The position numbers and the translations under genes were made by a program. Of a DNA stretch of 64,000 nt, positions 48,246 to 50,946 are shown piece by piece. The stretch is from NCBI GenBank assembly GCA_036172245.1, contig JAYWIR010000047.1, forward strand, positions 124,001 to 188,000, given 5' to 3'. Source of the DNA: Raillietiella orientalis. Its lineage: Eukaryota. The notes beneath the pieces were generated by a model. It did not search any database and had not been told where the DNA came from. It saw nothing but the letters and a program-made list of their open reading frames with translations. How positions within the stretch are numbered: the stretch's first letter is position 1; the number at the start of each line of letters is the position of its first letter.

Positions 48246-49468
48246 CTGTCACGCAGTCGGCGTTACCTGCCCGCCTATCTGCGTCTGTTCCGCCAACTAC
48301 TGGACTGCACTGCAAGGTAAGGACGACTGTCTGCCTCCAATGTCGGAGAGTTGCTGTACAAGGAATTCGTGACTCCGACTTGCTAGGTTAAGAAATTTGC
48401 GCCAGTGTGGAAGAAGAAAAGGACGGAAATGAGAAACAGAACGAAATAAGAAATATGAGACAAAAGATCGTCCTATTCAGAAGGAATCTTCTGGATACAG
48501 TAATCATATGATTGGAGGGACAAGTGTGATCCTAGATCTGCTGCTCTGACTGGAATGATAATTGTGCGATTTTTAGAAAGAAAGAGAAGAATGATCGCAC
48601 AGATCAACTGACCACTCAGCCCTCGCCTTCAAGCTGTATTCCACTTTTTGATGCATTTCATTTAATGCAATTTCTGCGTATGTTTGTGATTATTGCACTG
48701 AAATGATTTAATGCATGATTTAATGCAATATTTCCAAGCATATCTATTTCTTTCATTGAACTGGCCTTCTGTAATTACCCTCATTTATCTGGATTTTCAG
48801 TAAACCAGATGAGTCCAGGTATAATTCGATTATACAGAAGATAAACATTCATTTATGACCCACAAATATAATTATAATCAAAGAAACAATAGGGATCTTC
48901 ATTATGCAAACACATCATATTTTATTTTTACAAGACGAGAATTCTAAATAGAGTACGTTCCTTAATCTCAGCTAGATTCTTTTTCCTTGATTAATGAAAT
49001 AATTTTGTACTTCCTGAAGAGCTGACTGAAGGTTACACTGCGATTACAGTACAATTGCCGCAGAAATCGATTTTTATGCCAACCACCATTGCATCAATAA
49101 ATTCGTTTCTACGGTGTTTTTTATTTTATTTATAAGTAATTAATTAATTAATTATTTTTTTTATCACCTTTGATGAATTTGAAATAATGCATGGCGTTTC
49201 GGAAGGAATTGAATGATGGTAGTTCTGAAATCATACCATATCCGCTTTCTATTTTGGAGTCTGATTCGTGTGCACGTGTCGCGATAATGAAGGTTTATCG
49301 GAAAGGTTTATAGAGTCTTAGAGATAAAACTTGCAGGTGAGTATTAATAATAATATCGTCGTTTAGTGCAGAGTTAAATGTCGTGTGCACTTAACTGTGC
49401 AGTATCTGGTATGCAATATTGTGAAAATCAATTTTTGCTTCATAATGTTTGAAATTTATTTCTTTAGC

Positions 49469-50946
49469 ATGGTGGCTGCAAAGAATTTACCCGCGGTTCC
49501 AGAAACCATTTTGAAAAGAAGAAAAAGAACTATAGAGAACAGAAAGAAACGATTGATCGCGTTAGCTCAAGTATGTTGATCTTCACTAAAATTCACTATT
49601 CCAGAGTACCGCATTTGTATGTAGTTTACAAACATGGAAGATTAGTTTTGTGCACAGTATTTGAAAGTAACTTTTGGTATGGTAGAACATGCATTGTGAG
49701 ACTCGTAATGATTTGTATGGCATGATATGCTTTTGAGTGTTTGGTATTGTTACTCAGTTCATGAAATGCGTTGTGCTGTCTTCCAAAAAATTGGTGTACC
49801 CAGCTTGCTTACCGATGATGTAATTTTTCTGCAGTCAAGGAAGAAAAGAAAGTGGAAGAGGCACGAAATCTTTAAACGAGCCGAGCAGTACGTAAAAGAG
49901 TACAGAACTAAAGAAAGAGATTTGATCCGGCTGAAAAGACAGGCTAAACAGCATGGACATTTCTATGTTCCTGATGAGCCAAAACTTGCTTTTGTAATTC
50001 GTATTCGTGGGTAGGCTGCAACGTAAAGATGCTTAATTTTACTAACCTTGTTTCAAGAATTAATGGAGTTCATCCCAAGATAAGAAAGGTACTTCAGCTG
50101 TTCCGTTTGAGGCAAATTAATAATGGCATATTTATGAAACTTAACAAGGTTTGTTTGGCTTGATTCTTTTGGGGGCCTCTAGTGTTTGGGCAGTGAATCA
50201 CTTGTAAGATTTGACAATGCACAAGAGGCAGAGTAATATCAGATTTAATCTCAACAATTTAGTATTTGTTGATTCATGCTCTGATAACAATAGGCATCCA
50301 TCAATATGCTGCGCATAGCAGAACCATACATTGCATGGGGCTACCCAAGTTTAAAAACAGTTAGACAGCTCATTTACAAACGTGGTTTTGCCAAAATTAA
50401 TCACCAGCGAATTCCAATTCATCGGAATGAAGTAATAGAAAAAAAATTAGGTAAGCATTTCTTTTGCTGTATGCACAGACTTTATAACTAATTGTGCATT
50501 TTCCAGGAAAATTCAACATAATATGTATTGAAGATTTGATTCACACCATCTACACTGTGGGAAAGCATTTTCGACATGCCAATAATTTTCTGTGGCCATT
50601 TAAGGTAGGTCGGAATTTCTTGCTCTCTGACATTTTGGAGGGAAAGCTTTTGCCATCTTTTTCCAAGATATCCAAAGCAAGGTCTGAGGTCTATCCTGCA
50701 AGCTAGTTTTCGTTTTTACAGTATTAATTGGTACATGTTTGAAACAACTCGCGTTTTTGACCTGCAGATAAGCTTCACACTTTTTTTTTTTTTTTTTTTT
50801 AATCCGTTGTTTTATTTGTTCATTTTTTTCCGTAGTTAAACACACCTACTGGTGGATGGAGGAAGAAAACGAACCATTTTGTAGAAGGAGGAGATTTTGG
50901 CAACCGGGAAAATTTCATCAATGAACTTTTGCATCGGATGATTTGA
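49469..50946 (+). CDS. RPL7: 60S ribosomal protein L7 (uL30), 6 coding exons, 244 aa
   Basis: Exons 49469-49570, 49835-50010, 50058-50148, 50294-50450, 50507-50604 and 50836-50946 (735 nt, all GT-AG). Motifs [50 protein letters not shown] and [18 protein letters not shown] at 50966-71; likely 5' UTR intron 49337-49467. Confidence 0.97.
50173..50292 (+). ncRNA. Intronic box H/ACA snoRNA (predicted 28S rRNA pseudouridylation guide)
   Basis: Hairpin 1 GCCTCTAGTG...CACAAGAGGC (50175-50229); H box AGAGTA (50230-35); hairpin 2 with TATCAGA/TCTGATA lower and TCAACAA/TTGTTGA upper stems; ACA at 50287-89, 14 nt from the pocket top. The pocket strands TTCATGC and TTAATC complement GCAUGAA-UG-GAUUAA of large-subunit rRNA. 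Confidence 0.88.

Follow-up and report, generated by a model that had tools for sequence, protein, structure and literature searches.

The host gene and its introns

The DNA analysed here, the window, is a stretch of 64,000 nucleotides from Raillietiella orientalis (GenBank assembly GCA_036172245.1, contig JAYWIR010000047.1, positions 124,001 to 188,000). On its + strand, at 49469..50946, lies a gene for the ribosomal protein RPL7/uL30, whose six coding exons (49469-49570, 49835-50010, 50058-50148, 50294-50450, 50507-50604 and 50836-50946) make an open frame of 244 codons with a single terminal stop. Exons 2 and 3 score above the cut-offs of Pfam PF08079 and PF00327, exon 4 matches solved uL30 chains (E 2e-21), and the best named matches of exon 2 are to scattered animals, at 72–83%. 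A putative further intron in the 5′ UTR, 49337-49467, is suggested by its GT..AG borders and by the paralog of the gene. The intron of interest is the third of the coding region, or the fourth if the putative 5′ UTR intron is counted, and occupies 50149-50293 (145 nt, GT..AG, with identical borders in the paralog): a 26-nt leader is followed by a predicted box H/ACA RNA gene of about 118 nt (50175-50292, + strand) and that in turn by one base. The original prediction had named RPL7 intron 3 as host, and the Pfam and uL30 matches, together with the coding-region intron count, bear this out.

There are exactly two RPL7 genes in the genome, one on the window contig (C47) and one on another contig (C88), while the same kind of search finds RPL5 at one locus and RPL3 at one main locus. 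When 20 kb were compared, similarity between the two contigs was confined to about 2 kb around RPL7. Both frames are intact, with the same residue in 233 of 245 codons and 79% identity at four-fold sites. The duplication is a gene-level one, and the snoRNA was copied along with the gene.

The other introns merit a brief word. Those at 49337-49467, 49571-49834 and 50605-50835, 62–73% identical to their counterparts and so near neutral, hold neither a convincing paralog-shared H/ACA target nor paralog-shared antisense of at least 10 nt. The second of these, at 264 nt long against the 38–68 nt of most introns here and 67% identical to the paralog, has two weak pocket targets common to both copies, which are unconvincing. 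The last intron, 50605-50835, has in both copies a short and a long hairpin with ANANNA between them and then an ACA, 56 nt from the acceptor; several blocks of 10–13 nt are identical within an overall identity of 73%, near neutral, and there was no rRNA target common to both paralogs. It is possibly a second, atypical, H/ACA-like RNA. The 47-nt intron 50011-50057 carries a yeast-like UACUAAC branch motif, not conserved in the paralog, 13 nt from its end, and an AAG acceptor.

Predicted structure of the intronic RNA

The 5′ hairpin (50175..50229) has a lower stem at 50175-80/50224-29 and 50183-85/50221-23 and an upper stem, imperfect in the window copy, at 50193-50201/50206-50215. In the hinge is the H box AGAGUA (50230..50235; consensus ANANNA), and beyond it the 3′ hairpin (50238..50285), with its lower stem at 50238-43/50280-85 and its upper stem at 50251-57/50266-72. 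The ACA box (50287-89) and a 3-nt tail (50290-92) fall within 50287..50293, the intron ending four bases after ACA. Features that mark the H/ACA class include two hairpins with hinge and tail, an ANANNA H box, an ACA box after the 3′ hairpin, and pockets that pair over at least 8 bp around an unpaired UN with the target U 14–16 nt from the H or ACA box; all of these are present, the distance being 14 nt for both pockets. The mature 3′ end, which in this class falls three bases beyond ACA, would be at 50292. The class assignment and the 14-nt spacing between 3′ pocket and ACA, measured from the pocket's top, had been put forward from the sequence at the outset, and folds, boxes and stem covariation sustain them; what that reading of the anatomy had missed is that tail and splice acceptor share bases, a matter to which we return.

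How well does it fold? The minimum free energy structure of the whole RNA, taken as a 120-nt stretch, is the two hairpins, with z -1.94 on the + strand (10 of 200 shuffles as good), but the opposite strand folds at z -3.34, so that the fold on its own is no proof of an RNA and does not tell which strand would carry it. Taken by itself, the 3′ hairpin reaches z -3.14, with one of 200 shuffles as good. Across all of the window Rfam gave no match that reached the gathering score and, at E up to 10, five weak and irrelevant matches only in the 2 kb around the RNA; the Rfam comparison suggested with the original prediction thus yields nothing at threshold, though relatives of the RNA match SNORA48 and ceN84 below the cut-offs. 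A U17/snR30-type pattern had one match, with the motifs 12 nt apart in unrelated-looking sequence, and was not used.

The 3′ pocket and its predicted 28S target

The left guide strand of the 3′ pocket (50245..50250) forms 6 bp with 28S rRNA 3′ of the target U, and the right strand (50273..50279) forms 7 bp, 14 nt before ACA; all 6+7 pairs, around an unpaired UG in the organism's own 28S (contig C464, L014), are Watson-Crick. This is the best among 1540 U scored, the next best reaching 7.5, in a set comprising the 18S, 5.8S, 28S and U6 pieces of this genome (U1, U2, U4 and U5 lying outside it), with rRNA targets read from separate contig pieces. The substrate occurs at 16 places, the uninterrupted 28S piece being that on C464. 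Originally proposed as GCAUGAA-[U]G-GAUUAA, it had to be found in the 28S of the species itself if the idea was to stand, and there it is, with 13 bp. Many 28S fragments (L002-L008, L016-L021; contigs C33, C72, C81, C83) start a few bases before this site and are joined to non-rRNA sequence, some of them within a 9.5-kb repeat on C72; their start point is close to the insertion region of R1/R2-type elements.

The position of the target U had been given as yeast U2314 (snR86) and human U3797 (SNORA48), and both numbers prove right. Placed at yeast 2314, it lets 18/18 base identities at modified sites fit, the 18 positions coming from a table in PMC8307265, against 11 in the next register; placed at human 3797, five of five human modified-site identities fit. 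That table gives snR86 as guide of yeast Psi2314, the entry for SNORA48 in the 2016 human catalogue gives 28S-3797 for the second hairpin (PMC4914119), and a supplement to Taoka 2018 has the identical sequence context at human Psim3797 (PMC6182160). From established H/ACA biology, the RNA would very probably direct conversion of the U equivalent to yeast 2314 and human 3797 to pseudouridine. The 3′ guide pattern matches 18 places across the genome, and of these, judged by eye, only the two RPL7 copies have the full 7-nt strand in a clear hairpin; this search by guide pattern, which a strongly diverged third copy would escape, found no other convincing copy.

Comparison of the two RPL7 copies

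The duplication offers a ready yardstick. Neutral divergence is given by the 79% identity at 75 four-fold sites and by the 62–79% of the five other RPL7 introns; the host intron on C88 is 83% identical to that in the window and folds better, at z -4.79. Identity is unevenly spread along it. From 50239 to 50292 the copies agree at 51 of 54 positions (binomial P 0.0015 at the four-fold rate), whereas the 5′ hairpin, 50175-50231, agrees at the neutral level of 45/57 (P 0.56), as does the 26-nt leader (19/26). All 13 pairs of the 3′ hairpin are invariant, and so are all nine of the 5′ lower stem; these helices, 22 pairs in all, and every guide base are unchanged. The nine pairs of the 5′ upper stem fared differently: four are invariant, one has changed in a compensatory way, one has a G-U in exchange for an A-U, and the other three cannot form in the window copy. 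The paralog's H box, AAAGUU, is off consensus at its last base, and its ACA is conserved. The 3′ hairpin is under selection between the RPL7 paralogs.

It is against this background that a deflationary reading has to be weighed, namely that the locus is a snoRNA pseudogene or a chance fold and has no longer been made since it slid onto the splice site. The want of an Rfam match at threshold and the modest fold of the whole RNA (z -1.94) are what such a relic would be expected to leave. It would hardly be expected to leave a selected 3′ hairpin, stems invariant between paralogs and a perfect 13-bp guide with no other convincing copy in the genome, and we regard it as highly improbable. The sequence features make it very likely that the intron encodes a working box H/ACA snoRNA, about 118 nt long and equipped with two guide pockets, which from established H/ACA biology would bind dyskerin/Cbf5, NOP10, NHP2 and GAR1. 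The gene itself is unremarkable: it adds another to the known intronic pseudouridylation guides, although the conserved group to which it belongs escapes Rfam at threshold.

The 5′ pocket

The original prediction could assign no target to the 5′ pocket, and one has now been found. The left guide strand (50186..50192) forms 7 bp, one of them G-U, with 28S 3′ of a U, and the right strand, AAU (50216..50218), which begins 14 nt ahead of the H box, forms 3 bp, which makes 10 bp. The U lies 123 nt upstream of the 3′ pocket site on the same 28S piece (C464, L014) and, by the register check, is the equivalent of yeast 2191 and human 3674. In the 2191 row of the yeast table the guide is snR32 (PMC8307265), and yeast 2191 and 2314 are each more than 85% modified (PMC8307265). 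For human the figures are 99% at the Psi3674 equivalent and 100% at that of 3797. No other target among the 1540 U scored pairs over 3 bp or more on either flank alike in the pockets of both paralogs.

The pairing alone is within the noise: the strict scanner did not rank this target among its top scores, and the pocket scores 9.5 where chance pockets in control introns score up to 12. Support comes from the relatives, in which the right strand, of 3 bp in the window, is mostly the 4-bp form AAUC, with 4–8 bp in most of them.

Might the 3′ pocket be the only active one here, the 5′ hairpin decaying though structurally needed, and some other RNA guide the 2191 site? The neutral identity of the 5′ hairpin between paralogs, the three upper-stem pairs broken in the window copy, the 3-bp right strand and a score inside the range of chance pockets are all as that reading would have them. 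It is less comfortable with the distribution of changes, since the 10 guide bases and nine lower-stem pairs are unchanged between paralogs and 12 other hairpin positions differ, or with the 14-nt H-box spacing kept in both copies, and the 10 bp exceed the 8 bp that PMC6049503 gives as the minimum for H/ACA guide pairing. We judge decay of the 5′ pocket to be unlikely. Two-pocket activity is preferred: from established H/ACA biology the RNA would likely also direct conversion of the U equivalent to yeast 2191 and human 3674 to pseudouridine, its 5′ pocket being the weaker of the two.

Relatives in metagenomes and in Rfam

A scan of metagenome contigs for three of the guide strands plus ACA gave 81 loci with 73 distinct cores, and scoring of the 3′ stem left 31 distinct non-self candidates, among them L084 and L102, which scored under 9 and were put in manually. 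These 31 distinct sequences have both pockets in the same order. The fourth strand, AAUC, formed no part of the search; it stands 14–16 nt before an ANA in 21 of 29 cores with the 3′ hairpin and in 3 of 44 without, two of those three being L084 and L102, and as the cores are related the 29 are not independent events. Once two near-duplicates are removed, the 29 relatives left of the 31 vary at both partners in 14 of 15 stem pairs, a result matched by none of 500 shuffles, and slid controls drop to 31–47% paired; the 3′ stems had partly been selected for, the 5′ lower stem, in which four of the five pairs vary in this way, had not. An absence of stem covariation in relatives had been named at the outset as a finding that would tell against the RNA, and the stems do covary. 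The automatic pocket picker chose the wrong register for four of the 31 (L011, L027, L058 and L086).

A model, R1, built from the 29 relatives with none from this genome and with an RNAalifold structure of the 3′ hairpin only (10 pairs), gives the window copy 37.5 bits, the paralog 40.9 and the next sequence 13.5, scores which, like the 3′-stem covariation, are partly circular, with overstated P values, because guide strands and, in part, 3′ stem pairing were used in selection and many of the relatives are close kin.

The relatives also connect to named families. When 18 of their loci were run against Rfam, L044 matched SNORA48 (RF00554) over its full length at 28.2 bits (gathering 50; E 0.0015 in an 801-base search) and L104 matched ceN84 (RF01655), also over its full length, at 36.5 bits (gathering 80). 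The consensus lines of both families carry both pockets by eye. By score the window RNA is in neither Rfam family. In function it is the counterpart of SNORA48 and ceN84. A chain of sequence matches runs from the window RNA through the relatives to SNORA48, with model R1 as a link that shares the guide strands used to pick those relatives; distant homology, by way of an ancestral gene common to SNORA48 of vertebrates and ceN84 of nematodes, is probable.

Hosts differ. Among the 18 loci are BET bromodomain genes (L032 and L085, with L044 by the same exon) and a class II tRNA synthetase (L048, L051). RPL7 was considered as host of the relatives and dropped, as it was found at none of the 18 loci and tblastn with five RPL7 proteins gave no match in the metagenome loci. 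At L032, L085 and L044 the intron that holds the relative is followed by one and the same BET-bromodomain exon (DVFEM.YA.MPD). At L044 there are two copies and a sub-threshold SNORD10-like match, which echoes the human pairing of SNORA48 and SNORD10 in EIF4A1. A SNORD36 match above gathering (34.8 bits) at L084:2921-3006, on the - strand, is 1.3 kb upstream of the relative there and on the same strand as it, and the two probably have a common host.

Known guides and a possible second target of human SNORA48

SNORA48 (ACA48, RF00554), from an intron of EIF4A1 in which SNORD10 is its neighbour, guides the same large-subunit U (28S-3797) from the same 3′ hairpin, and both its Rfam consensus and the human sequence have the same two 5′ pocket strands in the same places. 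It differs in length and setting, being 135 nt in EIF4A1 as against 118 nt in RPL7, flush with the acceptor. The consensus of Caenorhabditis ceN84 (RF01655) has all four guide strands in the same order as the window RNA; no on-topic paper on ceN84 targets was found by title. In budding yeast the same two U are targets of two separate RNAs, snR86 (25S Psi2314) and snR32 (25S Psi2191), where here there would be one dual guide, and snR86, at about 1 kb (PMC5824354), is unlike the window RNA of about 118 nt, which has no Rfam match to any family.

The invertebrate copies, by showing where the 5′ pocket aims, make SNORA48 a candidate guide of human 28S Psi3674. Its first pocket, aligned by eye, lies 14 nt ahead of the H box and can pair with the Psi3674 context over 7 bp, of which one is G-U, on one side and 4 bp on the other. 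There is a U-U mismatch beside the target, a variant that recurs in the relatives L058 and L086, and a mismatch in that place is tolerated given extensive pairing, according to PMC6049503. In the 2016 human catalogue, for the rows listed, the first hairpin of SNORA48 has no reported target and 28S-3674 is absent (PMC4914119). A literature search by title gave no guide for human Psi3674/U3695, and the main text of PMC8522698 mentions none. We lean, with no great firmness, to the view that these RNAs form an ancient family of animal dual guides and that the 5′ pocket of SNORA48 would guide human 28S Psi3674. Misregulation of SNORA48 has been tied, in a preprint (bioRxiv 2021.11.10.467884), to a ribosomopathy locus in hypertrophic hearts, and a second target would change how loss of SNORA48 is read.

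The ACA tail and the splice acceptor

In both RPL7 paralogs the third base after ACA, the last of the RNA, is the A of the acceptor AG, which in the window is at 50292-93. An ACA tail that doubles as a splice acceptor is an unusually tight fit. Is another acceptor available? Of the 11 AGs in 50191-50340, only the one ending at 50293 gives an in-frame, stop-free exon, and as the RNA ends on the sole usable acceptor, a branch point at the usual distance lies inside the 3′ guide hairpin. Candidate branch As are at -22, -18 and -10. Those at -22 and -10 are YURAY-type and in the folded intron are paired with probability 0.95; that at -18, in the right guide strand of the 3′ pocket, is mostly unpaired (0.78). 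With three U from -15 to -4 the acceptor ties for lowest among 32 introns from four genes, in a small-intron genome where weak acceptors are common (pyrimidine count at most 6 in 5 of the 32).

Elsewhere the spacing is looser. Three relatives with BET hosts have 24, 58 and 90 nt from ACA to acceptor. Among the 28 relatives with downstream sequence, 4 also carry an AG at four bases beyond ACA; in one of these four, L051, some 300 nt separate it from the next exon that can be recognised. That being flush with the acceptor is a rule in this genome was an idea that did not survive its single comparator (n=1), the H/ACA-like candidate in SF3B3 intron 4, where 47 nt lie between ACA and the acceptor. 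In SF3B3, RPL3, RPL5 and an L4-family locus Rfam turned up no additional H/ACA RNA, and in a thin literature search no title dealt with an H/ACA RNA that runs right up to its own acceptor.

How could both products be made? The simplest order of events would be for the intron to be spliced first, from a branch A inside the 3′ hairpin (-22, -18 or -10), which implies that this hairpin is unfolded while the spliceosome works. Once the lariat is debranched, the 26-nt leader would be trimmed and the 3′ end would lose at most one base; proteins would coat the 3′ hairpin only after its release by the spliceosome. If the snoRNA is accepted, this order, with splicing first, the branch within the hairpin and late protein loading, seems to us reasonably likely.

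A more eventful arrangement would have the RNA made instead of the mRNA. H/ACA proteins would load on the nascent 3′ hairpin and hide branch point and acceptor, a course we think doubtful; the intron would be retained and the RNA cut from the unspliced transcript, the overlap then acting as a switch that relates RPL7 output to free H/ACA core proteins, which is doubtful to the same degree. There is precedent of a sort. The box C/D RNAs SNORD86 (in NOP56) and SNORD2 (in EIF4A2) control host splicing in cis, as their structure can mask the branch point in the intron that carries them (PMC11028025); they do so by pairing with flanking intron, while the window H/ACA RNA itself holds the candidate branch region and acceptor. 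The shared bases of tail and acceptor in both paralogs, the pairing of the -22 and -10 As, the U-poor acceptor and the stop or frameshift that follows from every other AG would all suit such a device. The -18 A is mostly free, though, and acceptors in this genome are often weak anyway; the only two RPL7 genes have intact, conserved frames, and with just these two genes splicing must be efficient. That H/ACA loading and RPL7 splicing compete for the same 30 bases as a built-in switch between snoRNA and RPL7 is an unlikely reading of the sequence, and literature searches showed no such switch for an H/ACA RNA.

The clash between splicing and RNP assembly would vanish altogether were the branch point upstream of the RNA, at the A at intron position 15, with the folded hairpins bringing the acceptor near and the RNA carried in the lariat tail. 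That A and a U-rich run are in the leaders of both paralogs. Against this, the A is only 14 nt from the donor where the shortest of the 32 introns is 38 nt, eight AGs would need to be skipped, and the leader is conserved only at the neutral 19/26; an upstream branch strikes us as very improbable, and splicing from within the hairpin followed by late assembly remains the preferred course.

On the textbook view, human H/ACA RNAs assemble co-transcriptionally and independently of splicing. An H/ACA RNA with zero spacer is a natural test of whether such particles can form once splicing is over, on a debranched lariat in which the branch had been internal to the RNA. Parts of further literature were covered as well (PMC5699541, PMC6466398, PMC8609340, PMC3342880, PMC11880993, PMC10454564, PMC9198423).

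Two introns in other genes of this genome attracted attention. The long introns SF3B3 intron 8 (L110:3258-3425) and RPL3 intron 6 (L111:3350-3519) have C-box-like and D-box-like motifs and, without an Rfam match, 10–11 nt of antisense to the organism's own 28S, which makes them candidate box C/D RNAs.
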